64,000 nucleotides of DNA, from the IMG/VR virus record IMGVR_UViG_3300030380_006483. The stretch is one strand, 5' to 3'. The notes beneath the pieces were generated by a model. That model saw only the letters and a list, made by a program, of their open reading frames with translations. It was not told the DNA's origin and did no database searches. Numbering within the stretch: position 1 is the stretch's first letter; the number at the start of each line of letters is the position of its first letter. The translations under genes were made by a program, and so were the position numbers. This document shows, in pieces, positions 18,709 to 56,482 of the stretch. The DNA comes from a virus.

Positions 18709-18736
18709 TATTTACAATCACAATAATTTTAAAAAT

Positions 18737-20610: not shown

Positions 20611-20612
20611 AT

Positions 20613-20876
20613 ATGGCATTAAAAAAACAATCAATAAGACAAGGAGTTTATGTTTTAATAGATGGAGTTAACGCTTCTAAAGAAGAACTTATTACATTAA
20701 GCGAAACATGGACCGAAAAAAAAGAAGTATTTTTTAGAAAAATGCTTCAACAAGGAGGTAATTTTAGAATGGATGGAAAAGATTTTATAGTTAAAATTAG
20801 AGAAAATCTTCAACTTAGATCAGATGGAACTAAAGATGGGGGAGTAGTTACAATCCCAGGAGGAAGAAGTTTTTAA
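20613..20876 (+). CDS. hypothetical protein
   Basis: 87-aa ORF tiled between cupin and polymerase C-part (TAATG overlap). Confidence 0.7.
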   Translation: MALKKQSIRQGVYVLIDGVNASKEELITLSETWTEKKEVFFRKMLQQGGNFRMDGKDFIVKIRENLQLRSDGTKDGGVVTIPGGRSF

Positions 20877-34650: not shown

Positions 34651-35286
34651 ATGGGAATAAGTTTTTTAGTTACAGCATATAACGAATACGAAGATTTAAA
34701 AAAATTACTAGCTCAACTTTTACAAGTTATAAAATCAACAGATGAATTAGTAATCCAATTAGATAATAAAGCAACAATTGAAGTTATTCAATTAGTAGAT
34801 AATTTTATAAAACAAAACAAAGATACAATTGAAATTAAAAAATGTCATTTTGATTTAAATAAAGACTTTTCATCATTTAAAAATAATGCTAAGGGCTATT
34901 GTACTAAAGATTGGGTATTTCAAATAGATGCTGATGAGACTTTAAGTGAAACATTTTGTAGAATATTACACGAAGTATTAGAGACAAATGAAGAAATTGA
35001 TTTAATAGCTGTACCAAGAGTTAATATAGTAAATGGTTTAACACAAGAAGATGTTACACAATGGGGGTGGCAATTAAATAATCAAGGTTGGGTTAATTGG
35101 CCAGATAGCCAACATAGAATTTTTAGAAACAAACCAGAAATTAAATGGGTAAATAAAGTACATGAAAAAATAGTAGGATGGAGAACATATGCTGAACTAC
35201 CATCTGAAGATGATTCATATGCTTTATATCATATAAAAGATATAGATAGACAAAGGGCACAAAACAAATTTTATTCAACAATATGA
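34651..35286 (+). CDS. GT-A glycosyltransferase (GT2-like)
   Basis: VTAYNE, FSSFKN, FQIDADE (DxD), WPD.QHRIF, VHE, YHIK. Confidence 0.85.
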   Translation: MGISFLVTAYNEYEDLKKLLAQLLQVIKSTDELVIQLDNKATIEVIQLVDNFIKQNKDTIEIKKCHFDLNKDFSSFKNNAKGYCTKDWVFQIDADETLSETFCRILHEVLETNEEIDLIAVPRVNIVNGLTQEDVTQWGWQLNNQGWVNWPDSQHRIFRNKPEIKWVNKVHEKIVGWRTYAELPSEDDSYALYHIKDIDRQRAQNKFYSTI

Positions 35287-36188
35287 AAAAGGTATTAATT
35301 ACGGGGGGTTATGGTATGGTAGGTTCCGCTATGGAATCTCAAATTAAATTATCAAGGGAAACTTGTGATTTAACAAATTCCAAACAAACACATAAATTAT
35401 TCCAATTAATTAAACCAGATGGTGTAATACATTGTGCTGGTAAAGTTGGAGGTATAGGGGGAAATTCAAATTATAAAGGTGAATACTTTTATGATAATTT
35501 AATGATTAATACTAATGTAATTGAATCTGCAAGAAAATCAGGTGTAAAAAATTTAGTAGCATTTTTATCAACATGTGTATTTCCTGATAAAGTAAAATAT
35601 CCACTTACAGTTGATCAAATACAATTAGGTGAACCACATGAATCAAATTATCCATATGCTTATGCTAAAAGAATGGCGGATGTTCAAATTAGAGCTTATA
35701 GAGAACAATATGGTATAAATTATACATCAATAATTCCATCTAACATTTATGGTCCTAATGATAACTTTTCATTAGAGCATGGCCATGTAATGCCCATGTT
35801 GATTCATAAATTATATTTAGCTAAGAAAAATAAAACAGACTTTACTGTATGGGGAAGTGGGAAACCATTAAGAGAGTTCATATATTCCAAGGATATAGCT
35901 AAAATAGCAGAATGGGCTTTATTTAACTATGAGGGTACAGATCCTTTAATTATAAGTGGTGATGAAGAAATATCAATTAAAGATTTAGTTGGTTTATTAG
36001 TTGATGAGTTTAAATTTAAAGGTAAAGTTATATTTGATAAAACAAAACCAGATGGACAATTAAGAAAACCATCAGATAACTCTAAAATAAAAGAACTGAT
36101 GCCTGATTTTGAATATACTCCATTTGAACAAGGTATAAAAGAAACAGTTAATTGGTTTATAGAAAACTATGATGAGGCAAGAAAATAA
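35283..36188 (+). CDS. fcl: GDP-4-keto-6-deoxyhexose epimerase/reductase (GDP-L-fucose synthase family)
   Basis: ITGG.GMVG, HCAGKVGGI, STCVFP, YAYAK, HVMP, WGSGKPLREF. Confidence 0.9.
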   Translation: MKKVLITGGYGMVGSAMESQIKLSRETCDLTNSKQTHKLFQLIKPDGVIHCAGKVGGIGGNSNYKGEYFYDNLMINTNVIESARKSGVKNLVAFLSTCVFPDKVKYPLTVDQIQLGEPHESNYPYAYAKRMADVQIRAYREQYGINYTSIIPSNIYGPNDNFSLEHGHVMPMLIHKLYLAKKNKTDFTVWGSGKPLREFIYSKDIAKIAEWALFNYEGTDPLIISGDEEISIKDLVGLLVDEFKFKGKVIFDKTKPDGQLRKPSDNSKIKELMPDFEYTPFEQGIKETVNWFIENYDEARK

Positions 36189-36726
36189 TAATTATACTTA
36201 TCATTCTATATTAAATTTAGGTTATTGGAGTAATATTTTAGAAGATGTAAATGTTAATTACTGGGTTGATAAATGTTACCAAATAAAAAATCATATCCCT
36301 TCTAGTAAAAAAAGTAATATAGAAGGGTATCAATCTCCTAATATTTTTACTCACCCTGATTTTTTTGATCTAATTTCTGTTCTTTCAAAACATATAAAAA
36401 AGTTTAAAAAAACTCCAAATTTAATAATACAATCAATGTGGGTAAATATATCTTCTTATGGTCATGCTAATTCTTTACATGTCCATAACAAATATAAAGA
36501 TGAAGATGGAGTTAAAGTAGAATCTGGAGTGTTTTATCTAAAAACAAATAGTAAAAGTGGACAACTTAGATTTTATAATCCTATAGATCTAAGTATCCAA
36601 TATGGTTTATCTCCTAAACCTTCCCAAATAGTACTATTTAACTCAGACATTTTACATAGTGTGGATCCTAATTTATCAAAAGAAGATAGAATATCAATAG
36701 CTTTTAATTACAAAATATATGGTTAA
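36169..36726 (+). CDS. putative 2OG-Fe(II) oxygenase
   Basis: MWVNI..GHANSLHVH, SGVFYL, VLFNS.ILHSV.PN, RISIAFN; sits between fcl and gmd. Confidence 0.8.
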   Translation: MMRQENNNYTYHSILNLGYWSNILEDVNVNYWVDKCYQIKNHIPSSKKSNIEGYQSPNIFTHPDFFDLISVLSKHIKKFKKTPNLIIQSMWVNISSYGHANSLHVHNKYKDEDGVKVESGVFYLKTNSKSGQLRFYNPIDLSIQYGLSPKPSQIVLFNSDILHSVDPNLSKEDRISIAFNYKIYG

Positions 36727-37693
36727 AAAAACAGCACTTATAACCGGTATAAATGGTCAAGATGGATCATATTTAGCCGAATTTTTATTAAAAAAAGGAT
36801 ATGAAGTATGGGGTACAATTAAACGTAATTCTGTAGCTGAAAATCAAACATCTAGACTAGATAAAATTTACCCTCAATTATTAGGTAAATTACAATATGC
36901 TGATCTAACCGATCTAGCATCATTGATTTCAATAATACAACAATGTCAACCCGATGAAATTTATAATTTAGCTGCGCAAAGCCACGTTAGAATTTCATTT
37001 GACCAACCTATATACACAGCACAAGCTACAGGTATAGGAACATTAAATTTATTAGAGGCAATTAGATTAACTAAACCTGATGTTAAAATGTATCAAGCAT
37101 CAAGTAGTGAAATGTTTGGTAATAATATAGATAAAGATGGTTTTCAAAGAGAAACTACCCCTTTATCCCCAGTATCTCCCTATGGTTGTGCTAAAGTATA
37201 TTCTTATAATATTTGTAACAATTATAAAAATTCATATAATTTATTTATTTCAAATGGTATTTTATTTAATCATGAATCACCAAGAAGAGGAACTAATTTT
37301 GTAACTAATAAAGTAGTTAAAACAGCGGTTGAAATTAAAAAAGGATTACGCAATGAATTAGTATTAGGTAACTTACAAGCTACTAGAGATTGGGGACATG
37401 CAAAAGATTATGTTAAAGCAATGTGGTTAATGTTACAACAAGATAAACCAGATAATTTTGTATGTGCAACAGGCATTTCCCATTCAGTGCAAGATTTAGT
37501 AGAGTATACTTTTAATAAATTAGATTTAGATTGGAATCAATATGTTAAAACAGATGCTAAATACTTACGTCCTGAAGAATTAAAAGATTTAAAAGGTGAT
37601 TCAACAAAATTAAGAGAATTAGGTTGGACAGCTGATTATACATTTGAAACAATGATAGATGAAATGATTAATTATTGGATGGAAAAATTATGA
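36719..37693 (+). CDS. gmd: GDP-mannose 4,6-dehydratase
   Basis: TGINGQDGSYLA, YNLAAQSHV, QASSSEMFG, SPYG.AK, LFNHESPRRG.NFVT, RDWGHA. Confidence 0.96.
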   Translation: MVKKTALITGINGQDGSYLAEFLLKKGYEVWGTIKRNSVAENQTSRLDKIYPQLLGKLQYADLTDLASLISIIQQCQPDEIYNLAAQSHVRISFDQPIYTAQATGIGTLNLLEAIRLTKPDVKMYQASSSEMFGNNIDKDGFQRETTPLSPVSPYGCAKVYSYNICNNYKNSYNLFISNGILFNHESPRRGTNFVTNKVVKTAVEIKKGLRNELVLGNLQATRDWGHAKDYVKAMWLMLQQDKPDNFVCATGISHSVQDLVEYTFNKLDLDWNQYVKTDAKYLRPEELKDLKGDSTKLRELGWTADYTFETMIDEMINYWMEKL

Positions 37694-38502
37694 GATTAAA
37701 AATAAAACATTTTGATAAAAAAGTATTTGAATCTAAAATGCAACATCTTAAAGATATTGATTTTACACTATTTGTAGATGATATACCACAGTCCGAAAGT
37801 GAATTAACTGATTTAAATTTTTTAGTACTACAAGAACCAAATGAATATTTTGGTTTACATGATTGGGCAATCAAAAACGAACATTTATTCTCAGCAATAT
37901 TAACTTGGGATAATAAAGTAATTAGTAGCTGTGAGCAAGCTGTATTATTGCCTTTTGGACATACTTGGATGACACCACACTTTTGGAATAAATCTTATGA
38001 TAAAAAATTTCAAGTGTCTCACTTAGCAGGTAAATTAAATAAAACATATGGTCATAGTTTAAGACATGAACTATTAGCTAGGAAAAATGAAATTAATATA
38101 GATAAAATATTTCACCACACTTATGGTAATAGACATGATATAGAAAATGCTAGGGCAGGTAAAGTAGAAATATTCGGTAATAGTCAATATGGTGTTGCAA
38201 TTGAAAATACATCACATAGAGGATATTTTACAGAAAAAATATTAGATTTATTGTTATTAAAAACAATTCCCGTATATTGGGGTTGTTCAAATATAGAAAA
38301 ATATTTTAATACAAAAGGAATTATACGTGTTGAAAATGTAGATGATATAATATACCAGGTTAATGATTTAAATCCTATATTATATGATTCTATGTCAGAT
38401 GTAATAGAAGAAAACTTTCAAACAGCATTAAAATATGTTGATTATGAACAAAGAATAGTAGATTATATAACTAAAGTTTTTAAAGAAAATAATATAATAT
38501 GA
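37690..38502 (+). CDS. fucosyltransferase-like (GT10 C-terminal motif)
   Basis: QYGVAIEN..GYFTEKILD..IPVYWG; adjacent to gmd; start at 37690 by ATGA overlap. Confidence 0.72.
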   Translation: MRLKIKHFDKKVFESKMQHLKDIDFTLFVDDIPQSESELTDLNFLVLQEPNEYFGLHDWAIKNEHLFSAILTWDNKVISSCEQAVLLPFGHTWMTPHFWNKSYDKKFQVSHLAGKLNKTYGHSLRHELLARKNEINIDKIFHHTYGNRHDIENARAGKVEIFGNSQYGVAIENTSHRGYFTEKILDLLLLKTIPVYWGCSNIEKYFNTKGIIRVENVDDIIYQVNDLNPILYDSMSDVIEENFQTALKYVDYEQRIVDYITKVFKENNII

Positions 38503-39650
38503 GAAGAAAAGTTTGGTATGCCCCCCATAGACACGAATCATTTGGAGAAGCAGAAATTAAAGCAGTTGAAGAATCACTTAGAGATGGGTGGTTAGCAGGT
38601 TTTGGTCCTAAATCTGTTGAATTTGAACAAAAAATTGCCAAAGAATTTGGTAAAAAATATGGTGTTTTTGTAAATTCGGGCTCATCAGCATGTTTATTAG
38701 CAATAGCAGCATTAGATTTAGAACCCGGAAGTGAAATTATTACTCCTGCTCTTACATTTTCAACTACATTAGCTCCTATTTTACAATTAGGATATAAACC
38801 TAAATTTATAGATTCACAATTAAATACTTATGTTCCAAGTGTAGAACAAATACTTGAAGCAGTTACTAATAAAACAAAAGCTATCATGGTGCCTAATTTA
38901 ATTGGTAATAAACCAAATTGGTCTATGTTACGAACTCAATTAAATAGAATAGATAGAAACGATATTATTATAATTGAAGATTCAGCTGATACAGTTACTG
39001 AAACATTACAATCAGATGTATCAACAACAAGTTTTTATGCCTCACACGTTATTACAGCCGGTGGAATGGGTGGTATGGTAATGTTTAATGATGAAAAATA
39101 TGTTAAACGTGCTTTAATGTATAGAGATTGGGGTAGAATTGGTGATAATAGTGAAAATATGGATGAACGATTTGCACATAATGTAGATGGAATACCTTAT
39201 GATTATAAATTCTTATATGGTGTTTTAGGTTATAATATGAAATGTACTGAACATTCAGCAGCATTTGGCCTAGTTCAATTAGATAAATTCCAAACATATA
39301 AAGATATAAGACGTAAAAACATAGAACGTTATTTAGATAATTTATATAATGTTAGAGAAATACTACTACCTGATGATAGTATTAAACCAAATTGGTTAGC
39401 AATACCACTTCAAACAGAACGTAGATTAGAATTATTAACATTTTTAGAAGAACAAAATATACAAACAAGAGTTACATTTGCTGGTAACGTTACTAGACAC
39501 CCAGCATATAGAGAATATTTACAAGATTTCCCCGTTGCTGATGAAGTAATGAAGAATGGATTCTTATTAGGTGCTCATCATGGTATGAATACTGATGATG
39601 TAGATTATGTTTGTGATAAAATAAAAGAATTTTTTGGATATGATAAATAA
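38499..39650 (+). CDS. PLP-dependent sugar 3-dehydratase-like (DegT/ColD/RfbH family; His replaces Lys)
   Basis: VNSGSSA, TPALTFSTT, IEDSAD, SFYASHVIT (H at the Schiff-base Lys position), GYNMK. Confidence 0.82.
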   Translation: MRRKVWYAPHRHESFGEAEIKAVEESLRDGWLAGFGPKSVEFEQKIAKEFGKKYGVFVNSGSSACLLAIAALDLEPGSEIITPALTFSTTLAPILQLGYKPKFIDSQLNTYVPSVEQILEAVTNKTKAIMVPNLIGNKPNWSMLRTQLNRIDRNDIIIIEDSADTVTETLQSDVSTTSFYASHVITAGGMGGMVMFNDEKYVKRALMYRDWGRIGDNSENMDERFAHNVDGIPYDYKFLYGVLGYNMKCTEHSAAFGLVQLDKFQTYKDIRRKNIERYLDNLYNVREILLPDDSIKPNWLAIPLQTERRLELLTFLEEQNIQTRVTFAGNVTRHPAYREYLQDFPVADEVMKNGFLLGAHHGMNTDDVDYVCDKIKEFFGYDK

Positions 39651-40644
39651 AACAGTTTATATAACAGGTTGTTTAGGTTTTATAGGTAGTTATGTAACTA
39701 GAGCTTGTTTAAAAAAAGGTTGGTACGTAAGAGGTATTGATAAAATAACTTATGCTGCTAATGAAAATTTATTACATGAATTTAGTAAATATGATAATTT
39801 CTTTTTTGAAAAAAAAGATATTAATGATATAGATTTTTTATATGAATGTGATTATATAATTAATACTGCTGCTGAAACACATGTAGGTAATTCTATAGTT
39901 AAAAGTGAAGATTTTGTACATTCAAATATAGATGGAGTACATAATTTACTTGAATTAATTAGAAATTATAGAGCAGAAGGTAAAGCTAAACCTACGTTAT
40001 TACATTTTTCAACTGATGAAGTATACGGTGATATTACAGAAGGTGAACATATTGAAACAGATTGTTTAAAACCATCTAATCCTTACTCTGCAACTAAATC
40101 AGCTGCAGATCAATTAATAATAGGTTGGGGTCGTACTTATGATTTACCTTATATAATATTAAGACCAACTAATAATTATGGAATTGGTCAATATGTAGAA
40201 AAATTAATCCCTAAATCTACTAAATATCTTTCTTTAGGTAAAAAAATACCATTACATAATGGTGGAACTCCTATTAGAAACTGGTTACATGCTAAAGATA
40301 CAGCCGAGGCCGTTATAGTATTAATTGAAAATAATGCCCAAGATATAATAGACGATAATAATATTTACAATATTTGTGGTGGTTATGAACAAACTAATTT
40401 GGATACAGTAAATAAAATTATTAGATTATATTATCCTCAAGATACAGCTCTTGAAAGAGATTTTCCAATGTATGATAGCAACATAAATGAATATTTAGAT
40501 TTATCTTATTCTAGACAAGGCCAAGATGTTAGATATGCTTTAAATGATGATAAATTAAGAGCTTTAGGATGGGAACCAAAAACTAAATTTGATGAAGAGT
40601 TACCTGCTATAGTTGGGTATTATAAAAATAATTTTATATGGTAA
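39640..40644 (+). CDS. NDP-glucose 4,6-dehydratase (RfbB/RmlB-like)
   Basis: TGCLGFIG, AAETHV, STDEVYG, PSNPYSATK, RPTNNYG.GQ..EKLIP, RNWLH. Confidence 0.88.
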   Translation: MINKTVYITGCLGFIGSYVTRACLKKGWYVRGIDKITYAANENLLHEFSKYDNFFFEKKDINDIDFLYECDYIINTAAETHVGNSIVKSEDFVHSNIDGVHNLLELIRNYRAEGKAKPTLLHFSTDEVYGDITEGEHIETDCLKPSNPYSATKSAADQLIIGWGRTYDLPYIILRPTNNYGIGQYVEKLIPKSTKYLSLGKKIPLHNGGTPIRNWLHAKDTAEAVIVLIENNAQDIIDDNNIYNICGGYEQTNLDTVNKIIRLYYPQDTALERDFPMYDSNINEYLDLSYSRQGQDVRYALNDDKLRALGWEPKTKFDEELPAIVGYYKNNFIW

Positions 40645-42431
40645 AGAAAAAGGTTTTAGAACATTTAGTAGATTATTTAGTAGATAACCATTTTGATACA
40701 TTTTTTCTAGTTACAGGGGGGGCAATTGTACCCACTGTAGATTACATAGGTAGAAAAAAAGGAGCTACATACTACTGTTTTCAACATGAACAATCGGCCG
40801 CCATGGCAGCTGAAAGTTTTTATAGAACATCGGGAAAAATGGGTGTAGTATTAACTACAAGCGGCCCAGGTGCCCAAAATCTACTAAATGGTATTTGTGG
40901 GTGCTGGTATGAATCAGTTCCTTGTCTTTTTATCACAGGTCAAGTTAGTACTTATGAATCACTTGATTCAATTCAAACTAAACCCAGACAAGTAGGTTTT
41001 CAGGAAATGCCCGTAGCCGAATCATTTAAACATTTTACTAAATATTCTACTAAAGTTACTAAAGCTGAACTATTTAATAATATACTTAAGGAAGCTATAA
41101 CATCTAGTTTAACAGGTAGGCCTGGCCCTTCTTTAATTGATTTACCAGTTGATATTCAAAATTCAACTATAGACAATTATTCAACGGATAAATTACTTTG
41201 GTGGAAGAAAAATCCAAAAAATTACATGTATCCTCATGAATATAGAGATATTGTAGATAAAATTAAACAAAGTAAAAGACCACTTTTATTATTAGGTCAA
41301 GGAGTAAAATTAGCTGGGGGGCAAAAGGAAGCTAAAGATTTAATTGATTCATTACAAATACCTTTTGTAGTATCTTGGGGTGGTTTTGATACTATATCCC
41401 ATGATCATCCTTTATTTATAGGTGACATAGGAGTATATGGTAGTAGAGGTGGAAATTATGCTATACAAAATTGTGATTTACTACTATCAATAGGATCCAG
41501 ATTAGATACTAGACAAACTGGGGGACAATTAGAATTATTTTCTAGAGATTCATATAAAATAATGGTTGATATAGATGCTAATGAAGTTTATAAAGATAGA
41601 GGTATTAAAATTGATCTTCCAATTATTAAGGATGCCCAAGAATTTTTGGAAAGCATGCTTAGTTTTACTGAAAAAATAGAATTGGATAAAGAATGGTTAG
41701 GATATATCACTCAATGGAAAAATTTAAAAGAAAAACGTAAAACACAAGATAATATTTTAACATCCTATGAGTTTTTAGAAGAATTAGATAATCATTTACC
41801 CGGTAATAGTATTATTATACCTGATGAGGGAGGTAATTTAGTTTGGACTATGCAGTCCATTAAAATAAAAGATAAACAAAAATTATATTCTAATTTTGGA
41901 AATTCATCTATGGGATATGGTTTACCCTCAGCTATAGGAGCTTGTATGGCAAATGAGGGACCTGTAGTGTGTATTGATGGTGATGGTGGTTTTCAAATGA
42001 ATATACAAGAATTACAAACAGTTAAACATTATAATTTACCTTTAAAGATTTTTATAATGAATAATAATTGTTATGGAATTATAAAACAATTCCAAGATTC
42101 ATATTTTGATAAAAGATATATAGCAACTGAATCTCAGGATTATACTGCACCCGATTTTGTAAAGGTAGCTGAAGCTTACGGTATCAAAGCATTACGAGCT
42201 ACTAAAGAAAATTATAAGGAAGTAATTAATTTGGCAATGCATGAAGAGGGTAGTATATTAGTAGATGTTATTATAGATAAGGAACAAAAACTTATTCCAA
42301 AATTAGAATATGGAAATCCATTAGAAGATATGTCACCATATCAAACTGATGATGAAATTAAAAATAATATGATAATAGAAATGGTCCCTAGAAGAGATAA
42401 TACACAGGGATGGGTAACTTTAAATAAATAA
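40638..42431 (+). CDS. thiamine diphosphate-dependent enzyme (acetolactate synthase/YerE-like)
   Basis: HEQSAAMAA, TSGPG, ITGQV, PGPSLIDLP, GDGGFQMN..NNNCYGII. Confidence 0.9.
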   Translation: MVKKKVLEHLVDYLVDNHFDTFFLVTGGAIVPTVDYIGRKKGATYYCFQHEQSAAMAAESFYRTSGKMGVVLTTSGPGAQNLLNGICGCWYESVPCLFITGQVSTYESLDSIQTKPRQVGFQEMPVAESFKHFTKYSTKVTKAELFNNILKEAITSSLTGRPGPSLIDLPVDIQNSTIDNYSTDKLLWWKKNPKNYMYPHEYRDIVDKIKQSKRPLLLLGQGVKLAGGQKEAKDLIDSLQIPFVVSWGGFDTISHDHPLFIGDIGVYGSRGGNYAIQNCDLLLSIGSRLDTRQTGGQLELFSRDSYKIMVDIDANEVYKDRGIKIDLPIIKDAQEFLESMLSFTEKIELDKEWLGYITQWKNLKEKRKTQDNILTSYEFLEELDNHLPGNSIIIPDEGGNLVWTMQSIKIKDKQKLYSNFGNSSMGYGLPSAIGACMANEGPVVCIDGDGGFQMNIQELQTVKHYNLPLKIFIMNNNCYGIIKQFQDSYFDKRYIATESQDYTAPDFVKVAEAYGIKALRATKENYKEVINLAMHEEGSILVDVIIDKEQKLIPKLEYGNPLEDMSPYQTDDEIKNNMIIEMVPRRDNTQGWVTLNK

Positions 42432-42434
42432 AAA

Positions 42435-43370
42435 ATGGCAGCAGATAGTAAAACTAAAAAAACAATTTTAACATTAAATAAAAATAAGCAGGATGGTAAC
42501 ACATCAGTTATGGTTACTGCTTATGATTATCCACAATCTAGGATAGCAGATGGATCTGGAGTAGATTGTATATTAGTAGGTGATTCTTTAGGGATGACTA
42601 CTTTAGGACATAAAACAACAATTCCTGTTACAATGGATGATATGATTAGATCATGTGAAGCAGTAAGTAGAGGAGCAGACGACGCATTATTAATTGGAGA
42701 TATGCCATATATGTCTTATCAACCTTCAAATCAAGTAGCAGTTGAAAATGCCGGAAGATTTATTAGATCAGGTATGGATATGGTTAAAGTAGAAGGTGCA
42801 ATGACTGATAGAATTAAAGCAATTTGCGATTCAGGTATATTAGTAATGAGCCATTTAGGTTTAACTCCACATACGAGAGCTAAATTAGGTGGTTATAAAG
42901 TACAAGGTAAAACTGCAGAACAAGCTGAAGTAGTGTTAAAACAAGCTTTACAATTACAAGAAGCAGGTTGTTCAGCATTATTGTTAGAGGCAATGCCTAA
43001 AGAACCAGCAGGTATGATTGCTAGAGAATTAGACATTCCAGTATTTGGTATTGGGGCTGGTGATCAAGTAGATGGACAACTAGTTATATACCATGATTTA
43101 ATGGGATTATTTTGGGAATTTAAATCTAAATTTGTAAAAAGATATTGTGAAGCAGGGCAGATAATGTCTGATGCATTAAAAGATTATGTTAGAGAAGTAA
43201 AAGAAGGAATATTTCCTGCTCAAGAAAATTTTTATGAAATTAAAGATGAGGAATTAGAAAAGTTATTAGGTGATAAAAAATGGAAATATGAATTAGATAA
43301 CGATTACTATAATAATCGTAATCATAGTGCAACACCAATTACTCAGAAAAAGACAGTGATTAAAAGATGA
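42435..43370 (+). CDS. panB: ketopantoate hydroxymethyltransferase homolog
   Basis: TAYD, LVGDSLGM, GDMPYMSY, VKVEG, HLGLTP, LLE, GIGAG, GQLV..HD. Confidence 0.93.
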   Translation: MAADSKTKKTILTLNKNKQDGNTSVMVTAYDYPQSRIADGSGVDCILVGDSLGMTTLGHKTTIPVTMDDMIRSCEAVSRGADDALLIGDMPYMSYQPSNQVAVENAGRFIRSGMDMVKVEGAMTDRIKAICDSGILVMSHLGLTPHTRAKLGGYKVQGKTAEQAEVVLKQALQLQEAGCSALLLEAMPKEPAGMIARELDIPVFGIGAGDQVDGQLVIYHDLMGLFWEFKSKFVKRYCEAGQIMSDALKDYVREVKEGIFPAQENFYEIKDEELEKLLGDKKWKYELDNDYYNNRNHSATPITQKKTVIKR

Positions 43371-44191
43371 AAATCCTTATTACAGGTGGGAGTGGTTTTG
43401 TAGGAAGAAACATTTCAAAATTTTTGGGCCCTGACTATGACATATATACTCCTACCTCATCACAATTAGATTTTACTGATAGTAAAGAAGTAGAAAAATA
43501 TTTTCAAAATAAATTTTTTGATGTAGTAATACATTGTGCTATTACAGGTGGAAGAAGAAATGAACAAGATTCAGCCTTTACCCTTCATGAAAATCTAAAA
43601 ATGTTTTTTAATTTAATGAATAATAGAGATAGATTTGATAGATTCATTAATTTTTCTTCTGGTGCTGATTTTGATAAAACTAAACATATAAACATTAATA
43701 ATCATAATTTAGAAAAAAGTTATCCAATTCGACCTTATGATATGTCTAAAAATATAATTAGTAGAGTACTTAAAAATAGTCCTCGTTGTTATAATTTTAG
43801 AATTTATGGTGTATTTGGTATAGATGAAGCTGAGGATAGATTTGTAACTTCAAATATTAAAAGATATAAAGAACATAATCCTATAGAAATACATCAAAAT
43901 AGATATTGGGACTTTTTTTATATAAAAGATCTTGTAAATATAATTAAATATTATATTGATAATCCTAAATATGATTTAGATAATGAGATGGATCTAGTGT
44001 ATCAAGATCTTTTATCTTTAAAAGATGTAGCTAATTTAATTAATGATTTAGACTATAATAAAGTTGAAATAAAAATAGATAATAATACTAGGGATTTAGA
44101 TTATTTAGGTAATAAAAGTTATGGGGTTAATTTACCTATTGAATTAATAGGATTAAAAAAAGGATTAGAAGAGATATATAATGCATTATAA
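43367..44191 (+). CDS. NAD-dependent epimerase/dehydratase/reductase (SDR)
   Basis: ITGGSGFVG, SSGA, YDMSK, RIYGVFG, DFFY..D. Confidence 0.85.
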   Translation: MKILITGGSGFVGRNISKFLGPDYDIYTPTSSQLDFTDSKEVEKYFQNKFFDVVIHCAITGGRRNEQDSAFTLHENLKMFFNLMNNRDRFDRFINFSSGADFDKTKHININNHNLEKSYPIRPYDMSKNIISRVLKNSPRCYNFRIYGVFGIDEAEDRFVTSNIKRYKEHNPIEIHQNRYWDFFYIKDLVNIIKYYIDNPKYDLDNEMDLVYQDLLSLKDVANLINDLDYNKVEIKIDNNTRDLDYLGNKSYGVNLPIELIGLKKGLEEIYNAL

Positions 44192-45095
44192 AATTACATA
44201 TCCATGTATGCCATGGGAGCTTGACTATGCTCTCCTTTCTTTTACCCAATTTAAAAAATCTAAATATTATTTAGATGAGAAGGATACTATAGAAATAAAC
44301 CCATCATTAAATTTATCTTCATATATAGTTAATTGGGAAAAAAGTAAAATATCTAAAGATTTACTAATAAGTAGATTTAATCAATATTTAAAATTATTAG
44401 AAGGTTATAAGGTAACTCCTATTATCTATGAAGGAGATGAATTATATGGACATTTAGACCACCAAAGGGATGCTATGTCTTCTGAAGTAGACTTTTATAT
44501 TAGTGTTTGCCCAGACATGTATTTTAGTGAACATTTATTACCTTTACTAATTAATAGTTCGAAACAAATAGATACTAAATATTTTGTATTAACTCCTGAA
44601 ATATATAAAATGTGGGATAATACCTGGGATGAAATCACAAATCAGGATTATTTAGGTGTACCTTATGAGGAATGGAATAAGGGAGATATTTTTGATATAA
44701 GATCTAATATGAAAAATTCAGAAAAAGGTGTTACATTAGAAACTACTATGAGAAGTAAGTGGGCGGGTTGGTTTGATTTATTTAATAAAGAAATGTATGA
44801 AAATTTAGTACCCATACAAAAGGATTGGAATGGATATGGTCCTTGGGATTGGTATTCCTTAATGATAACTGAAGCTTGTAAAAAGAACGGAGTTGATTTT
44901 CAACAGTATATTTTAAGAGGACAAACCATATTTGAATATCCTATTGGTCCTTTATTAGATGGTGGTTATACTAAAATGTATAAGGACTTACTATATTTAA
45001 ATGAAATACCAGATCAAAGAAAAACATTTGAATTTAATATGCCACAATATGTTAGTGATGGGGTTAAAAGATTAAAAGAAAAAGGAATATTATGA
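44181..45095 (+). CDS. hypothetical, possible GT-A glycosyltransferase
   Basis: CPDMYF, GWFDLF, GYGPWD; position in glyco island. Confidence 0.45.
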   Translation: MHYKITYPCMPWELDYALLSFTQFKKSKYYLDEKDTIEINPSLNLSSYIVNWEKSKISKDLLISRFNQYLKLLEGYKVTPIIYEGDELYGHLDHQRDAMSSEVDFYISVCPDMYFSEHLLPLLINSSKQIDTKYFVLTPEIYKMWDNTWDEITNQDYLGVPYEEWNKGDIFDIRSNMKNSEKGVTLETTMRSKWAGWFDLFNKEMYENLVPIQKDWNGYGPWDWYSLMITEACKKNGVDFQQYILRGQTIFEYPIGPLLDGGYTKMYKDLLYLNEIPDQRKTFEFNMPQYVSDGVKRLKEKGIL

Positions 45096-45910
45096 AACAC
45101 CTAGTTTTAGGTTCTAGCGGTCAAATAGGAGCTCACCTTGTTAATTATTTACAAAGTAAAGGAGAACAAGTATATGAATTTGATTTAGTAAATAAAGACT
45201 ATCAAGATTTAAGAGTAATTTCTAATGCTCATTTAGACTATATTATGGATACTTGTGATATAGTTCATTTTTTAGCCTTTGATGTTGGGGGGGCTAAATA
45301 TTTAGAAAAATATCAAGATACTTATAGTTTTATTTTTAACAACATGATGATATTAACTAATACATTTGAAAAAATTAAATCATTTAAAAAACCTTTTATA
45401 TTTGCTTCATCTCAAATGGCAGAAATGGGCTATTCAAGTTACGGGATGTTAAAATCATTAGGTGAAAAAATGACCCATGATATGGGAGGAATTGTAGCTA
45501 GATTTTGGAATGTTTATGGCTATGAAACAAACCCAGAAAAATCTCATGTAATAACTGATTTTATTAAAATGGCTAAAAATGACGGGGTTATTAAAATGAG
45601 AACAGATGGTACTGAATCAAGACAATTTTTATATGCTGATGATGCTTCTGAGGCATTATTAACATTGGCTAAAAACTATGATAAAATTAATAAGAATAAA
45701 AATTATAGTATTACTAGTTTTGAATGGACTAAAATTTATGAGATAGCTAATATATTAGATGTACTATCTAGTTGTAAAGTATTTCCTGGAGATAAAAAGG
45801 ATCAAACTCAACTTAATGCTATGAATAAACCCAATGATAATATTAAAAAATATTGGCAACCTAAAACTAGTTTAGAAGAAGGAATAATGAAATTATATAA
45901 TTTATATTAA
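45092..45910 (+). CDS. NAD-dependent epimerase/dehydratase (SDR)
   Basis: LGSSGQIG, FASSQM, YGMLK, RFWNVYG, RQFLYADD. Confidence 0.85.
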   Translation: MKHLVLGSSGQIGAHLVNYLQSKGEQVYEFDLVNKDYQDLRVISNAHLDYIMDTCDIVHFLAFDVGGAKYLEKYQDTYSFIFNNMMILTNTFEKIKSFKKPFIFASSQMAEMGYSSYGMLKSLGEKMTHDMGGIVARFWNVYGYETNPEKSHVITDFIKMAKNDGVIKMRTDGTESRQFLYADDASEALLTLAKNYDKINKNKNYSITSFEWTKIYEIANILDVLSSCKVFPGDKKDQTQLNAMNKPNDNIKKYWQPKTSLEEGIMKLYNLY

Positions 45911-46596
45911 TGAAACAAGGTATTATTATACAAGGGCCAACTGAGTATTATAAAGAATTAGCAGATTATTATTCACAATTTAATAATGTTGTATGGGCTA
46001 CATGGAATGATGAATCCATTGTTAGATTAGATTATATTCGTAACAAAGGTATAGAAGTTGTACTTGTAGAAAAACCAGAAGTATTTGGTTATATGAATGT
46101 TAATATGCAAGTTAAATCATCATTTGAAGGTGCAAATTACTTGGAAGGTAAAGTTGATGAAGCATTAAAAGTTAGAAGTGATACTATAGTAACTAATTTA
46201 GATAAATTATTACCTAGATTAGAAAATAGACAATTAGCATTTATGGCTACTTGTAAAACTGGTGTTAGAAAAGATTTAGGATATGAATTGGTTTACTACC
46301 ATAATAGTCATGATTACCCAGCTGATAATGTTATATATGGAAAAATTTATGATTTAAAATTAATGTTTGATTTTCAAATACATGAATTAATACCTATACC
46401 ACCTGAGGCACTTATAGCTTGGAATTATATGACTAATAAAGGAATAAAGTTTAAATTAGATTATCAATCTATGGTGGATGGTGGAATTGGTTTCTTTTTA
46501 CAAGAATGTTTAGATGAAGGAGTTGAAGTAAATTGGTTAAAACGAGAAGCAAATTTAGTAGATTGGTATAAAGATAAAACAGTATATGACTGGTAA
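45910..46596 (+). CDS. WavE-like putative glycosyltransferase
   Basis: IIIQGP, WATW, N.NMQVKS, KVRSD, D.VIYG, PE. Confidence 0.6.
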   Translation: MKQGIIIQGPTEYYKELADYYSQFNNVVWATWNDESIVRLDYIRNKGIEVVLVEKPEVFGYMNVNMQVKSSFEGANYLEGKVDEALKVRSDTIVTNLDKLLPRLENRQLAFMATCKTGVRKDLGYELVYYHNSHDYPADNVIYGKIYDLKLMFDFQIHELIPIPPEALIAWNYMTNKGIKFKLDYQSMVDGGIGFFLQECLDEGVEVNWLKREANLVDWYKDKTVYDW

Positions 46597-47344
46597 AAAA
46601 ATAAAAGTAGCTTTATGTTTATCTGGAGAACCTAGAAATTCTATGTTTTCTTTTCCTTATATATATGAATCAATACTTTCTCTAAATAATGATTCAAATT
46701 TTGAAGTTGATACTTATATTCATTTTTCTAAAACGTTTAGAGCTTTTAATTTATATAACTCTAAAAAGTATTTATTTGAACCTTTTTTAATAGCTGATAT
46801 CATACCTTATATATTAAAACTAAAATATCCCCCTGAATTAAAATCTATATTTTCATATGATCTTTTTAACACTACTAACTCTAATAACCTTATTAATCAA
46901 GTTAGAATGTTAAAAAATGTTCAAACTTGTTTTAATTTAGCAAAATCTTATTCTAAATATGATGTCGTAATTAGATGTAGACCTGACATATATTTTAATA
47001 AAAAAATTAACTTAAAACATATTATTCAAAATATTATTATGCTTGAAAAATATGATATTTTTATTCCTAAAAAAGATACTATTGATAAAACACCACACAA
47101 TGAATATAGTGATCAGTTTGCTGTTGGTAATTTTAAAAGTATGGAAATATATTCAAATATGTTTGATAATATAGAATCTTTATTATTTGAAACTAAAAAT
47201 TTAAAAGCAGAAATTTGGTATAAAAATTATTTAGATAATAAAAATTTGAGAATACATGAAGAAATTTTAGATTCAAATTTAGTTAGAGATATACATGTTT
47301 GTAATGAAAAACGTTGTCCTGATACAAACTTTTTAAGTGAATAA
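46586..47344 (+). CDS. putative glycosyltransferase, ALCLSGEPR family, paralog 1
   Basis: KVALCLSGEPR, YIH, YDVVIRCRPD, SDQFAVG, AE. Confidence 0.6.
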   Translation: MTGKKIKVALCLSGEPRNSMFSFPYIYESILSLNNDSNFEVDTYIHFSKTFRAFNLYNSKKYLFEPFLIADIIPYILKLKYPPELKSIFSYDLFNTTNSNNLINQVRMLKNVQTCFNLAKSYSKYDVVIRCRPDIYFNKKINLKHIIQNIIMLEKYDIFIPKKDTIDKTPHNEYSDQFAVGNFKSMEIYSNMFDNIESLLFETKNLKAEIWYKNYLDNKNLRIHEEILDSNLVRDIHVCNEKRCPDTNFLSE

Positions 47345-47347
47345 ATT

Positions 47348-48082
47348 ATGAATTTAAAAATAGCTTTATGTTTATCTGGGGAACCTAGGAGTACTATGTT
47401 TTGTTATCCTTATATTTATGAAAATTTAATACAAAAATATTCTACAGACGTTTATATCCATTCTTGGAGACCTTTCAGAGCCCTAGATTTATATAATCCA
47501 ATAAAATTTTCTATTGAACCTGAAGAAGAATTTTTATCTCTTGAATATTTTAAATCATTTCCTTATCCTGATAAAATTAAAGAATTTAAAAATGAAGTAC
47601 ATGAATATAGTAAAAGTTCTAACTTATTTTTAAATTGTTTTAAAATGCTTCTTTCTATCGAAAAGTGTTTTAAATTAATTGAAAATCCTTCTAAATATGA
47701 TGTTATAATTAGGTGTAGACTTGATGTAATGTTTAGACACCCCGGATGGTTTGATAATCTATTAAAAAATATTGTAGAAAATAAAAATGATATTATTCTT
47801 CCTTGGGGAGGATTAGACCCATATCAGTATGGTGATACTTTTGCAGTAGGTAATTCAAAAAGTATGGGTTTATATTCTAAAATGATGACTAACTTACCTA
47901 CAATTGCCGAAAGTTTAGAAATTTGGCATGGTGAACATATACTAGGAAAAACTTTAGAATTCCATAAACTTAAAGTTGATGCTAATATAGGCATTCCTAT
48001 TCAAATAGTTAGACACAGTAATATAATAACGGATGGAAGTCCTTCATTTAAAACTAATAAATTTAAATTTTATAACGAATGA
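47348..48082 (+). CDS. putative glycosyltransferase, ALCLSGEPR family, paralog 2
   Basis: KIALCLSGEPR, YIHSW, YDVIIRCRLD, GDTFAVG, GE. Confidence 0.6.
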   Translation: MNLKIALCLSGEPRSTMFCYPYIYENLIQKYSTDVYIHSWRPFRALDLYNPIKFSIEPEEEFLSLEYFKSFPYPDKIKEFKNEVHEYSKSSNLFLNCFKMLLSIEKCFKLIENPSKYDVIIRCRLDVMFRHPGWFDNLLKNIVENKNDIILPWGGLDPYQYGDTFAVGNSKSMGLYSKMMTNLPTIAESLEIWHGEHILGKTLEFHKLKVDANIGIPIQIVRHSNIITDGSPSFKTNKFKFYNE

Positions 48083-49437
48083 TAAAATTAATTATATTTG
48101 ATCTAGATGGAGTTTTAGTTGAAGCTAAAAATATCCATTACGAAGCGCTTAATAAAGCATTAGGTGATTATGCTATTAGTTGGAATGAACATCTGTCAAC
48201 TTATGATGGATTAAAAACAGTTCAAAAACTAAATATGTTGACTAAACAAAAAGGTTTACCAACTAAAGAACATAATCGTATTTGGGAAGATAAACAAAAA
48301 AATACTTTAGATATGTTAAGCGATTTAGAAATAAATCCTAGTTTACTTTATACAATATCTAAACTATCAGATGAGGGATATAAAATAGTATGTTGTTCTA
48401 ATTCTATAAGAAAAACGGTATTAACTGTACTTGCTAAATTAGGTTTAATTGAATATATGGATTTAATTTTATCTAATGAAGACGTTGATAATAGTAAACC
48501 ACATCCTGAAATGTATTGGAATGCAATTTCAAAGATGAAATGTTTACCAGAGGAAACTTTAATTATTGAAGATTCCCCTTATGGGTTACTTGCGGCAGCA
48601 AGAAGTAAGTCGTATATTTTACGAGTAAAAAATCCACAAGAAGTAACTTACGAAAATATTATAAATAAAATAAATAAAGTACAAATGGGAGATAAACAAA
48701 CAACTCCAGCTTGGAGAGATGAAACATTAAATGTATTAATACCAATGGCGGGTGCCGGTTCTAGATTTGAGAAAGCTGGCTATACATTTCCAAAACCTCT
48801 TATTGAGGTAAGAAAAAAACCAATGATACAAGTGGTAGTAGAAAATTTAAATATAAAAGCTAATTATATCTATGTAGTACAAAAACAACATAGAGAAAAA
48901 TATAACTTAGATGCTTTATTATCATTAATTACTCCCGGTTGTAAAATAGTTGAAACAGAAGGTATGACAGAAGGAGCTGCCTGTACAGCACTATTAGCCA
49001 AAGAATATATTAATTCAAATTCACCCTTGTTTTTTGCTAATTCAGATCAATTTGTAGAATGGGATTCAAATGAATTTTTATATAAAATGAATGAAACAAA
49101 CGCTGATGGTGGTATTGTAACATTTGAAGCAACACATCCTAAATGGTCGTTTGCTAAAGTAAATGAACAAGGTTTAGTAACTGAAGTAGCAGAAAAAAAT
49201 CCTATATCCAATATAGCAACTATAGGTTTTTATTATTGGAAAAATGGTAGTGATTTTGTTAAGTATGCAGAACAAATGATAAATAAAAATATTCGCGTAA
49301 ATAACGAATTTTACGTATGTCCAGTATTTAATGAAGCTATCGAAGATGGAAAAGCGATAAGGACTTTTGATGTTAAAGAAATGTGGGGATTAGGTACACC
49401 TGAAGATTTAAATTATTATTTAGAAAATTATAAATAA
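48079..49437 (+). CDS. HAD phosphatase fused to sugar-phosphate nucleotidyltransferase
   Basis: N: FDLDGVL, KPHPE, IEDSPYG; C: IPMAGAGSRF..YTFPKPLI, TEGAACT, NSDQ, NNEFYV.PV, WGLGTPEDL. Confidence 0.88.
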   Translation: MIKLIIFDLDGVLVEAKNIHYEALNKALGDYAISWNEHLSTYDGLKTVQKLNMLTKQKGLPTKEHNRIWEDKQKNTLDMLSDLEINPSLLYTISKLSDEGYKIVCCSNSIRKTVLTVLAKLGLIEYMDLILSNEDVDNSKPHPEMYWNAISKMKCLPEETLIIEDSPYGLLAAARSKSYILRVKNPQEVTYENIINKINKVQMGDKQTTPAWRDETLNVLIPMAGAGSRFEKAGYTFPKPLIEVRKKPMIQVVVENLNIKANYIYVVQKQHREKYNLDALLSLITPGCKIVETEGMTEGAACTALLAKEYINSNSPLFFANSDQFVEWDSNEFLYKMNETNADGGIVTFEATHPKWSFAKVNEQGLVTEVAEKNPISNIATIGFYYWKNGSDFVKYAEQMINKNIRVNNEFYVCPVFNEAIEDGKAIRTFDVKEMWGLGTPEDLNYYLENYK

Positions 49438-53965: not shown

Positions 53966-56482
53966 ATGAGAAATTTACTTAGCTTACTGCTTGTATTAGT
54001 AGTAGGTAGTATGGGCTTTGCCCAAGAAACAGATGTGGATGAGAAAGAAATCTTAGTCACAAATCTTGAAGAAGTAACAGTATCTTCAGGTGTAATTGAT
54101 GTCGCTGTAGAAAGAAAGACACCAATTGCCTTAAGTATAATTACTTCTCAAGAAGTCCAACTTAAAGTTGGTAACCTAGAATTTCCAGAGATCATGAACA
54201 AAACACCTGGTGTTTATGCTACAAAACAAGGTGGTGGGTATGGTGATAGCCGTATTTCATTACGTGGTTTTGATCAGCGAAACACTTCATTCCTAATTAA
54301 CGGTCAACCTGTTAATGATATGGAAAATGGATGGGTGTATTGGTCAAACTGGGCTGGATTAACTGATGTTGCATCAGGAATTCAAATTCAAAGAGGATTA
54401 GGTGCCTCAAAACTAGCAGTTCCCTCAGTAGGTGGAACTGTATCAATTTTTACTAAAAGTGCTGAAAAAGCAAGAGGTGGATCCTTTACTCAATTAATGG
54501 GTAATGATGGTTATTCTAAATCCACTATTGCTTATAACACTGGTGTAAATGATAATGGATGGGCTACTTCATTCTTATTAACTAAATGGCAAGGTGATGG
54601 ATATATTTACAACACCAGCGGAGAGGGTTTAACATACTTCGCAGCATTAGGATACTCACCAGAAGGTTCAGCACATAGTTTGAACCTTTCTCTTTTAGGT
54701 GCTGGACAATGGCATCATCAAAGAGACGTTTGGGTTTCTATTAGGGATTATCAAAACTTCGGAGAAGAAGGAATTGATCCAAGATGGAATTCAAATGGTG
54801 GTACATTAGATGGAGAAGAATTCTCAATGAGAAGAAACTTCTATAACAAACCATTAGCTACTTTAAACTGGGATTGGGAAATTAATTCTAATATAGAATT
54901 AAATACATCTCTATACGGTTCAGCTGGTAGAGGTGGTGGTACAGGTCCAAGAGGTAGAAATTACTACAACTCGGAAACTGATATTTTACCATTTAGAAAG
55001 GATTTAACTGAACACTACCTAGAAAATGGTAGAGGTTCAAGAGATGCTAATGGATTTATTGATTACAATGCTTTAATAGATTATAATCAAGCAAACACAA
55101 ATGCATATACAGGTGATATTTCTAGATACCAAGGTCTAAAATTAGGATCTAATGGATTTAGAGATGATGGTGTAAATAGAGCTGCTTTAATTAGAAGAGC
55201 TTCTATGAACTCACATGACTGGGTAGGTGCTATTTCAAACCTTAATATTACTAAAGGTAAAATGAAATACTCTCTAGGAGTTGATCTTAGAAACTATACA
55301 GGATATCACTATAGAGCTTTAAATAACCTAATGGGATTAGATGGATACTACTCAACTGGAAATAAAAATTCAGCTGGACAAGTTATTGAATCTACTATTG
55401 AAGCATCCCCATTCAAAGATACTGGAATTAGAGGTCCTAAAATTGACTACTACAACGTAGGTAAAGTAGGATGGCAAGGTTTAAACTCATTAATTGAATA
55501 TAGTGGTGATAAAGTTACTGCTGTATTACAAATGGGTACTTCAAATCAATCATTCCAAAGAATAGATTATTTTGACCAACCAGGTAATTTTGAATCAGAA
55601 ACTAAAAACATAACTGGTGGTTATGTTAAAGGTGGTGCTAACTGGAACTTTAATGATTATTCAAATGCATTCTTTAACGTAGGTATTATTGATAGACAAC
55701 CAAATTTTGATGGTGTATTCCCTAACTACGCTAACGCTATTAACCCAGATTTACAAAATGAAGAAATTCGTTCAGTAGAATTAGGATATGGTTTTAGAAA
55801 AGGTGCTTGGAAATTAAACGTTAACTTATACTCTACAACATGGGGTAACAGATTCGTTACAAGAAGTTTATCTAACCAACAAGGTGTAGATGGATTTGCT
55901 CAATTCAAAGACATAGATGTACTACATAATGGTTTAGAGATAGAAGGTCAATGGAGACCTACTATGGCTACTAAAATTAGAGGTATGCTTTCAATCGGTG
56001 ATTGGAGATATACTAAAGATTTTGAAGCAGCATTATTTGATGATACTCAAACTCAAATCGGTACAGGTACATTATACCTAAAAGATGCTAAAGTAGGTGA
56101 TGCAGCACAATTTGTTGCTTACTTAGGTTTAGATCAAAAATTAGGTAAAAAATTAAACTTTGATGTTGATTACAGATTTGTAGATGGCTTATACGCTGAT
56201 TATTCAATTACTGATTCTGAATTTACAACTGCAGGGAACAAAGGTGCCTTAAAACTACCATCTTATGGTTTAGTTGATATGGGTGCTACTTGGTACTTAG
56301 GTAATAAATTAAGTCTAAGAGTAAATGTTAATAACGTATTTGATGCTTTATACATTGCTGAATCAAATAGTAACATCCACACATCTGCGGATTCAGTTAC
56401 TTGGAACGGAATTGATAATAGAAACTCAGTTTGGTTCGGATTTGGTAGAACTTGGAATGCTAGTTTAAAATATAGGTTTTAA
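53966..56482 (+). CDS. TonB-dependent outer-membrane receptor
   Basis: Signal peptide, LEEVTVSS TonB-box-like, plug (PGVY..ISLRGF..LINGQP..IQIQRG..GGTVSI), amphipathic beta-strands, C-terminal ASLKYRF. Confidence 0.93.
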   Translation: MRNLLSLLLVLVVGSMGFAQETDVDEKEILVTNLEEVTVSSGVIDVAVERKTPIALSIITSQEVQLKVGNLEFPEIMNKTPGVYATKQGGGYGDSRISLRGFDQRNTSFLINGQPVNDMENGWVYWSNWAGLTDVASGIQIQRGLGASKLAVPSVGGTVSIFTKSAEKARGGSFTQLMGNDGYSKSTIAYNTGVNDNGWATSFLLTKWQGDGYIYNTSGEGLTYFAALGYSPEGSAHSLNLSLLGAGQWHHQRDVWVSIRDYQNFGEEGIDPRWNSNGGTLDGEEFSMRRNFYNKPLATLNWDWEINSNIELNTSLYGSAGRGGGTGPRGRNYYNSETDILPFRKDLTEHYLENGRGSRDANGFIDYNALIDYNQANTNAYTGDISRYQGLKLGSNGFRDDGVNRAALIRRASMNSHDWVGAISNLNITKGKMKYSLGVDLRNYTGYHYRALNNLMGLDGYYSTGNKNSAGQVIESTIEASPFKDTGIRGPKIDYYNVGKVGWQGLNSLIEYSGDKVTAVLQMGTSNQSFQRIDYFDQPGNFESETKNITGGYVKGGANWNFNDYSNAFFNVGIIDRQPNFDGVFPNYANAINPDLQNEEIRSVELGYGFRKGAWKLNVNLYSTTWGNRFVTRSLSNQQGVDGFAQFKDIDVLHNGLEIEGQWRPTMATKIRGMLSIGDWRYTKDFEAALFDDTQTQIGTGTLYLKDAKVGDAAQFVAYLGLDQKLGKKLNFDVDYRFVDGLYADYSITDSEFTTAGNKGALKLPSYGLVDMGATWYLGNKLSLRVNVNNVFDALYIAESNSNIHTSADSVTWNGIDNRNSVWFGFGRTWNASLKYRF

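Follow-up and report, generated by a model that had tools for sequence, protein, structure and literature searches.

IMG/VR virus record IMGVR_UViG_3300030380_006483 raises the question of what a PanB protein, a member of the ketopantoate hydroxymethyltransferase family, is doing in a phage cassette of sugar-modifying enzymes. The stretch of DNA that we analysed, 64,000 nt in length and here called the window, contains at positions 38499-45910 a run of seven + strand genes whose adjacent members overlap by 1-17 nt, except for a 3-nt gap between a thiamine diphosphate (ThDP)-dependent enzyme and PanB (Table 1). A preliminary description of this DNA had reported a tightly coupled run with an intact PanB 3 nt behind the ThDP enzyme, and both observations are borne out. 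The genes that it named are also present; a seventh, encoding a GT-A-fold glycosyltransferase between two short-chain reductases (SDRs), had gone unnamed.

We somewhat favour a reading in which this region is the core of a phage pathway to a nucleoside diphosphate (NDP)-activated 3,6-dideoxy-4-C-branched hexose, with a side chain longer than the acetyl-derived branch of yersiniose. By analogy with known systems, PanB would most likely make the building block of this side chain. The constant part of the cassette is a trio of His-type 3-dehydratase, YerE-like carboligase and PanB, usually joined by a 4,6-dehydratase and a reductase, and PanB is the addition to the logic of yersiniose.

The logic of the cassette is a variant of a published scheme for acyl-branched sugars. 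This "unifying scheme" covers the erwiniose, caryophyllose and gastriose clusters (ErwI/ErwJ-ErwE-ErwF, MMAR_2331/2332, MygI/MyGE/MygF; PMC9306805) and consists of genes for a 3,6-dideoxy-4-keto nucleotide sugar, a carbon-carbon bond-forming enzyme for a functionalised 2-oxoacid, a YerE-like carboligase, a reductase and a glycosyltransferase. All five roles (PMC9306805) have candidate genes inside 38499-45910. There are also clear differences, as the carrier is a marine phage and not a bacterium, the carbon-carbon bond-forming enzyme is PanB (folate-dependent, of the phosphoenolpyruvate mutase/isocitrate lyase superfamily) and not a pyruvate aldolase, the 3-dehydratase is without an Fe-S cluster, and the 4,6-dehydratase is of the dTDP-glucose type whereas theirs is of the CDP type. 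No paper connecting PanB with branched sugars was found in the literature searched.

Linkage of PanB to the ThDP-dependent enzyme

When IMG/VR was scanned with the PanB protein, 90 relatives came up and 80 of them were retrieved (53-99% identity). In 78 of the 80 retrieved loci a ThDP gene lies no more than 300 bp from PanB, 49 times upstream of it and 29 times downstream. The two remaining loci, both in the ThDP-downstream group, end 40 and 812 bp past PanB; the pairing is therefore kept in all 78 loci that can be judged, and the panB-TPP-DegT linkage, on the conservation of which the preliminary description had made its proposal depend, is strikingly well retained. Frequent gene orders are TPP-PanB-SDR-DegT-4,6DH, DegT-4,6DH-TPP-PanB-SDR(-GT-A) and PanB-TPP...DegT, where TPP is the ThDP gene and 4,6DH that of the 4,6-dehydratase. 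Additionally, marine metagenome contigs repeat the viral PanB-ThDP pairing, and high-GC contigs with a housekeeping PanB are without it.

The 80 best cellular PanB loci, with one genome per species, served as a control. No ThDP neighbour occurs in the 77 housekeeping loci among them. The three further loci are exceptions, two of them phage-like contigs and the third a Chloroflexi metagenome-assembled genome (MAG) with the order ThDP-PanB-DegT(His)-SDR-NUDIX-B12 radical SAM. The phage-like contigs (L081 and L082), one binned with a Pelagibacter MAG and one in a Prochlorococcus single-cell genome, carry phage-type PanB-ThDP pairs and may hint at hosts or be binning artefacts.

These counts bear on a more conventional explanation, namely that PanB is an ordinary auxiliary gene for pantothenate and coenzyme A, a bystander in a glycan island, and that the branch made by the ThDP enzyme is simply an acetyl one of the yersiniose type. 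At least one virome study takes the viral "pantoate transferase" as a vitamin-B5 auxiliary gene; in an oxygen-minimum-zone survey, no other viral gene related to vitamins was as abundant (PMC8940887). The window protein does share with housekeeping PanB a score above the equivalog cut-offs of hidden Markov models (TIGR00222, 276.2 bits vs a cut-off of 207.55; NF001452, 318.7 vs 272) and a canonical active site, since it aligns to E. coli PanB (1m3u) with all catalytic residues present. The window protein and all 74 of the viral A/B sequences keep residues D50, S51, D89, K118, E120, H140 and E185, which align with E. coli D45, S46, D84, K112, E114, H136 and E181, the Mg2+ ligands and the acid/base set of that enzyme; Ser46 and Lys112 are presumably the carboxylate ligands. 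Unchanged as well in viral PanB are the alkyl-pocket positions equivalent to I202 and I212, which in E. coli PanB were mutated to change its 2-oxoacid range (PMC7611260).

The viral PanBs differ from housekeeping ones in several respects. They form a single, separate clade (SH-aLRT 96), and eight substitutions are fixed in this clade relative to cellular sequences (L119V, G122A, G139S, Q146H, E175Q, A179C, L217V and P231S). The first four adjoin catalytic residues, flanking K118/E120 and H140. Within a conserved C-terminal extension that cellular PanBs lack (residues ~270-311), W283 and K284 are nearly universal among viral sequences, and H297, T300, P301 and T303 occur in ~90% of the main viral clade. 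Lastly, viral PanB always stands beside a ThDP carboligase, and its near-complete relatives have no other pantothenate gene: PanC, IlvD, KARI_C and ApbA_C were not found in PanB-bearing relatives judged 100% and 90% complete. For the window itself, the earlier remark that ilvC, ilvD, panC and panE are missing holds for the open reading frames (ORFs) scanned, at 30-56 kb. A control for panC-like genes in the window, with ORFs from around cellular PanB genes as queries, was discarded; the two representatives checked were spurious high-GC ORFs without a Pfam family.

A bystander would not be expected to adjoin a ThDP gene in every judgeable viral locus, in both gene orders and with three ThDP subtypes, yet in none of the cellular housekeeping loci, nor to stand in near-complete genomes without PanC, ApbA, IlvD and KARI, and we regard the bystander explanation as very unlikely. 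Because of its conserved pairing with a sugar-branching type of enzyme, the viral "pantoate transferase" can be argued to be a glycan-pathway gene; the "pantothenate" gene of ocean viruses is probably a gene of a sugar pathway.

Candidate enzymes for the keto sugar and its branching

The ThDP enzyme is better described as YerE-like than as an acetohydroxyacid synthase (AHAS). It has all three TPP domains and scores 408.5 bits against the AHAS model TIGR00118, under the cut-off of 538.35, and all specific AHAS models stay far below their own cut-offs. Its PDB matches are led by 8rph (316 bits) and 5ahk (312 bits), the latter probably PpYerE, ahead of the best AHAS, a plant enzyme, at 253 bits. 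The leading match, 8rph, is the YerE-like enzyme JanthE (PMC12188165). The activating Glu51 and the GDG...NN motif (GDG448-450, NN475-476) are invariant in 79 ThDP homologs. While the viral ThDP subtypes diverge, with 29-37% identity to the window enzyme, representatives of the two further subtypes again match JanthE and 5ahk best, ahead of AHAS. On the grounds that its gene is linked to those of a 4,6-dehydratase and a 3-dehydratase of the His type, we propose that this enzyme would add an acyl unit at C4 of an NDP-3,6-dideoxy-4-ketohexose.

The putative 3-dehydratase belongs to the DegT family and has an E1-like backbone. It scores 256 bits against the RfbH model NF011936, under the cut-off of 423, and its best PDB matches are E1 (3bcx, 190 bits) and then ColD (3gr9, 142 bits). 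The preliminary description had noted a His in place of the catalytic Lys that binds pyridoxal 5'-phosphate (PLP) and a lack of the Cys motifs of Fe-S-type E1, and the alignments agree on both counts. The His of the motif FYASHVIT aligns with E1 His220, the position mutated in the H220K structure 3bb8, and the Fe-S cysteines of E1 (EDCCD, DCYC..C..C) align to S, A, I, N and similar residues. This combination is common to the 18 sequences that we call type A. More broadly, His occupies the lysine column in 71 of 71 DegT homologs from the 68 IMG/VR loci that have DegT. These enzymes fall into three subtypes, comprising 17 window-like sequences without the Cys pattern plus that of the window, 37 E1-like sequences with EDCC...CxC...C, and 18 ColD-like sequences that include the Chloroflexi locus L084. 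Since all are His-type, it would seem that the chemistry of the keto-sugar acceptor has been kept while the enzyme lineage was swapped. Three exchangeable His-type 3-dehydratases, one of them E1-like without its Fe-S cluster, provide a natural series for the gain and loss of reductase dependence.

No Fer2 or NAD_binding_1 protein, as would be expected of an E3-like reductase, was found in a 90%-complete type-A relative. Together with the missing Fe-S cysteines this leads us to expect a ColD-like, reductase-free action, and judged by its sequence the DegT enzyme of the window should act in this manner. The E3 search itself does not distinguish the subtypes, as none of them, including a 60%-complete genome of the Fe-S type, yielded an E3-type reductase.

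The adjoining 4,6-dehydratase is a candidate for the dTDP-glucose type, with 276 bits for that model (TIGR01181) vs 58 for the CDP type and 53 for the gmd type. Homologs at 55-76% identity occur in related loci, mostly adjoining the DegT gene. The linkage also separates the type-A enzyme from ColD, the GDP-4-keto-6-deoxymannose 3-dehydratase of colitose synthesis. Both have His for the PLP lysine and no Fe-S cluster, but the type-A enzyme is nearer to E1 in sequence and its gene is linked to a dTDP-glucose-type dehydratase and not to gmd.

This point bears on another account of the locus. It could be that the joint product of PanB and the ThDP enzyme is not a sugar but a small acyloin or acid with which a glycan is decorated, for example as an acyl substituent, and that the 3-dehydratase serves an unbranched 3,6-dideoxy sugar such as colitose through gmd and an fcl-like SDR. 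The preliminary description had itself kept colitose as an alternative. Directly upstream of the cassette lie gmd, fcl and a GT10-like gene, some metagenome loci have a ColD-like DegT between fcl and gmd, and the second SDR of the cassette weakly resembles the C-terminal half of GDP-fucose synthase. Against these observations, loci that lack gmd and fcl still group the window-type DegT with the dTDP-glucose-type dehydratase, the ThDP enzyme and PanB, which leaves the colitose alternative weak. Additionally, the closest relatives of the ThDP enzymes are YerE-like and accept ketones, and the ORFs scanned included none for acyl activation or acyl transfer. The upstream fcl, 2-oxoglutarate (2OG) oxygenase, gmd and GT10-like genes (35283..38502) are a GDP-fucose module, a pathway separate from the cassette, and this module is missing in several related loci that retain DegT, 4,6-dehydratase, ThDP enzyme and PanB. 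Of the readings considered here, that of a non-sugar product beside colitose seems to us the least likely.

Two further members of the cassette could complete the pathway. The RmlD-like SDR has remote PDB matches to dTDP-4-dehydrorhamnose reductases, which do not assign its step, and 40 of the 80 viral loci have a homolog of it no more than 300 bp from PanB. We propose that it fits the role of the side-chain ketoreductases YerF and ErwF. The GT-A ORF gave an AlphaFold model with a pLDDT (predicted local distance difference test) of 90.5, and Foldseek searches with this model matched LARGE1, GalNAc-T2, K4CP and TarS (E values of 1e-8 to 1e-6). Within the IMG/VR set this gene is confined to loci whose ThDP enzyme is of the window type (64-84% identity), and it recurs in a metagenome locus (L178) alongside a 60%-identical ThDP enzyme. 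We propose it as the likely transferase of the branched sugar.

Order of the proposed steps and nature of the donor

Yersiniose A of Yersinia pseudotuberculosis (CDP-glucose 4,6-dehydratase, E1/E3, YerE and YerF) has in common with the phage cassette 4,6-dehydration, 3-deoxygenation by a His-type enzyme dependent on pyridoxamine 5'-phosphate (PMP), C4 branching by a ThDP enzyme and side-chain reduction. The phage cassette differs in that it is without an E3 reductase or Fe-S cysteines, its nucleotide is probably not CDP, and it has PanB strictly linked to the ThDP enzyme. This strict linkage implies a donor other than pyruvate. For erwiniose, Steitz et al., in work on sugars whose branches exceed two carbons, deduced from the gene cluster and the donor range of ErwE that an aldolase builds a 4-hydroxy-2-oxoacid first. 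This ThDP enzyme takes 4-hydroxy-2-oxobutanoate, refuses pyruvate and uses a 3,6-dideoxy-4-keto sugar as acceptor, with the ErwF reductase proposed to complete the branch (PMC9306805). E. coli PanB is promiscuous and makes 3-substituted 4-hydroxy-2-oxoacids from many 2-oxoacids (PMC7611260). The erwiniose precedent, this substrate range and the residues kept in the viral proteins thus point to a PanB that would act on a free 2-oxoacid, the product of which would be the donor for the ThDP enzyme.

In the pathway that we propose, the 4,6-dehydratase would, by its family assignment, form an NDP-4-keto-6-deoxyhexose (step 1). The His-type, Fe-S-free DegT enzyme would then eliminate the 3-hydroxyl through a PMP mechanism like that of ColD, independent of an E3 reductase, as the His-for-Lys exchange and the missing cysteines suggest, giving an NDP-3,6-dideoxy-4-ketohexose (step 2). 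In parallel, PanB and methylene-tetrahydrofolate would hydroxymethylate a free 2-oxoacid to a 4-hydroxy-2-oxoacid (step 3); its substrate would most likely be 2-ketoisovalerate, giving ketopantoate, with pyruvate or 2-oxobutyrate as alternatives. By analogy with ErwE, the YerE-like ThDP enzyme would decarboxylate that acid and join the resulting acyl unit to the keto sugar at C4 (step 4). Finally, the RmlD-like SDR would reduce the side-chain carbonyl and the GT-A enzyme would move the sugar onto a phage or host glycan (step 5).

A different order had been put forward in the preliminary description, and it is here that the two accounts part. In that version the ThDP enzyme adds a pyruvate-derived acetyl group to C4, and PanB hydroxymethylates the methyl of this branch on the nucleotide sugar before the SDR reduces it. 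The part of the proposal that places PanB in a yersiniose-like pathway to a C4-branched 3,6-dideoxy sugar is supported, while its action on a sugar-bound acetyl branch is disfavoured. Mg2+ could be chelated by the alpha-hydroxy-ketone of a C4-acetyl branch in much the way that it is by a 2-oxoacid, and the substitutions flanking K118/E120 and H140 could, with the viral extension, fit a larger substrate. However, Ser51 and Lys118, aligned to E. coli Ser46 and Lys112, and the I202/I212-equivalent positions are invariant. In erwiniose, moreover, the one analogous system that has been tested, the aldol reaction precedes branching and the ThDP enzyme refuses pyruvate (PMC9306805). We consider action of PanB after branching to be unlikely.

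Since the PanB pocket is unchanged, 2-ketoisovalerate and ketopantoate are the simplest guess for the substrate and product of step 3. Taken to its end, this guess predicts a 1,3-dihydroxy-2,2-dimethylpropyl (neopentyl-type) branch at C4 of a 3,6-dideoxyhexose, made with a third kind of 3-dehydratase that has an E1 backbone and has lost its Fe-S cluster. This particular structure is a tentative suggestion that we find rather doubtful. To our knowledge, a quaternary-carbon substituent of this kind has not been described in any glycan. If the ketopantoate-branch reading is true, the abundant "pantoate transferase" of ocean viromes would be a marker not of vitamin B5 synthesis but of a phage glycan that is widespread and so far undescribed. 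More generally, the proposed pathway would add a folate-dependent hydroxymethyltransferase to the side-chain builders of acyl-branched sugars, and it predicts a new sugar structure.

Several points weigh against the pathway as drawn. The support for it comes from sequence and linkage, and the order of PanB before the ThDP enzyme is inferred from the analogy with erwiniose and from the conserved 2-oxoacid-binding residues. The substitutions and the conserved extension of viral PanB may point to a changed, possibly larger, substrate. With its quaternary carbon beside the carbonyl, ketopantoate is a hindered donor, and no precedent for its use by a ThDP carboligase was found. Additionally, the adjacent 4,6-dehydratase is missing in four window-type loci, and the second SDR is without a place in the proposed pathway. 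The latter protein matches the C-terminal half of GDP-fucose synthase weakly and NDP-sugar epimerases in the PDB remotely, and it is poorly conserved among related loci.

Surroundings of the cassette and variation among related loci

The window has a low G+C content of ~28%, and nearly all of its ORFs lie on the + strand. The context of the cassette is a phage and not a bacterium, as the PHROG matches of the window show; these include GroEL, a family-B DNA polymerase, a protein of the tail fibre or baseplate, three NodU-like carbamoyltransferases and a tryptophan-halogenase-like protein. The polymerase has no more than 34% identity to that of any cultured phage, and with these phage proteins this identifies the carrier as an uncultured marine T4-like phage. 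DNA and protein searches of cultured phages returned no close homolog of the cassette, the matches being mostly host contamination or unrelated dehydratases. A single PanB match among cultured phages belongs to Microcystis phage MaAM05.

The cassette is enclosed in a glycan island of ~20 kb, which also encodes GT1, GT2 and GT10-like transferases, gmd, fcl, two 2OG oxygenases and a HAD-nucleotidyltransferase fusion (Table 1). By its sequence this fusion, which lies beyond the cassette, is a candidate for sugar activation, and homologs at 74-89% identity are present in several window-type loci. Large marine phages seem to invest in elaborate surface or virion glycans.

Table 1. Positions and family evidence for the seven genes of the cassette and for neighbouring genes of the glycan island
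Feature	Position	Strand	Family evidence
fcl	35283-36188	+	NF047922 Fcl 239 bits
2OG oxygenase	36169-36726	+	
gmd	36719-37693	+	TIGR01472 gmd 399 bits
GT10-like transferase	37675-38502	+	PF00852 match
Putative PMP-dependent NDP-4-keto-6-deoxyhexose 3-dehydratase (type A)	38499..39650	+	PF01041 249 bits; E1/RfbH-like backbone
NDP-hexose 4,6-dehydratase, dTDP-glucose type (candidate nucleotide)	39634..40644	+	TIGR01181 276 bits (cut-off 365)
YerE-like ThDP-dependent carboligase, putative C4-branching enzyme	40638..42431	+	PF02776, PF00205, PF02775
PanB (ketopantoate hydroxymethyltransferase family), C-terminal extension of ~40 amino acids	42435..43370	+	PF02548 326 bits
RmlD-like SDR	43367..44191	+	PF01370, PF04321
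GT-A-fold glycosyltransferase	44181..45095	+	Predicted structure; no Pfam/NCBIfam family
Second extended SDR, epimerase/reductase-like	45092..45910	+	PF01370
HAD (beta-phosphoglucomutase-like) and sugar-1-phosphate nucleotidyltransferase fusion	48079..49437	+	PF13419 and PF00483; TIGR02009; TIGR01208 rmlA_long, low score

Between the cassette and the HAD-nucleotidyltransferase fusion (45910-48082) are three small consecutive ORFs, two with weak DUF7796 matches and one without a family, that probably encode further transferases. Elsewhere, additional genes accompany the conserved pair. For example, in a viral locus of the PanB-then-ThDP type (L027) a B12-binding radical SAM (S-adenosylmethionine) enzyme is encoded directly beside PanB (L027:8446-9999), and another is part of the Chloroflexi MAG cluster (L084:6014-7528). 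In loci with such an enzyme the side chain may be further modified by C-methylation. L027 further encodes a radical SAM/SPASM protein, a GT47-like protein and an RmlC-like epimerase. In a viral locus with an E1-type DegT (L047:14059-17801), the cassette is followed by genes for an MptE-like protein, NeuB, a CMP-sugar cytidylyltransferase and a class-III aminotransferase, which look like a nonulosonic-acid pathway beside that for the branched sugar.

Other regions of the window hold genes of separate interest. Three NodU/CmcH-like carbamoyltransferase paralogs (phrog_1601; 6959-8068, 11611-13350 and 13355-14551) suggest carbamoylated glycans. The family-B DNA polymerase ORF and, after it, the tryptophan-halogenase-like gene (18737-20266) occupy 16957-21799. 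Finally, the phage encodes a full-length TonB-dependent receptor of 838 amino acids (53966-56482), with a Plug domain and a beta-barrel, whose local G+C of 0.35 is above that of its surroundings.

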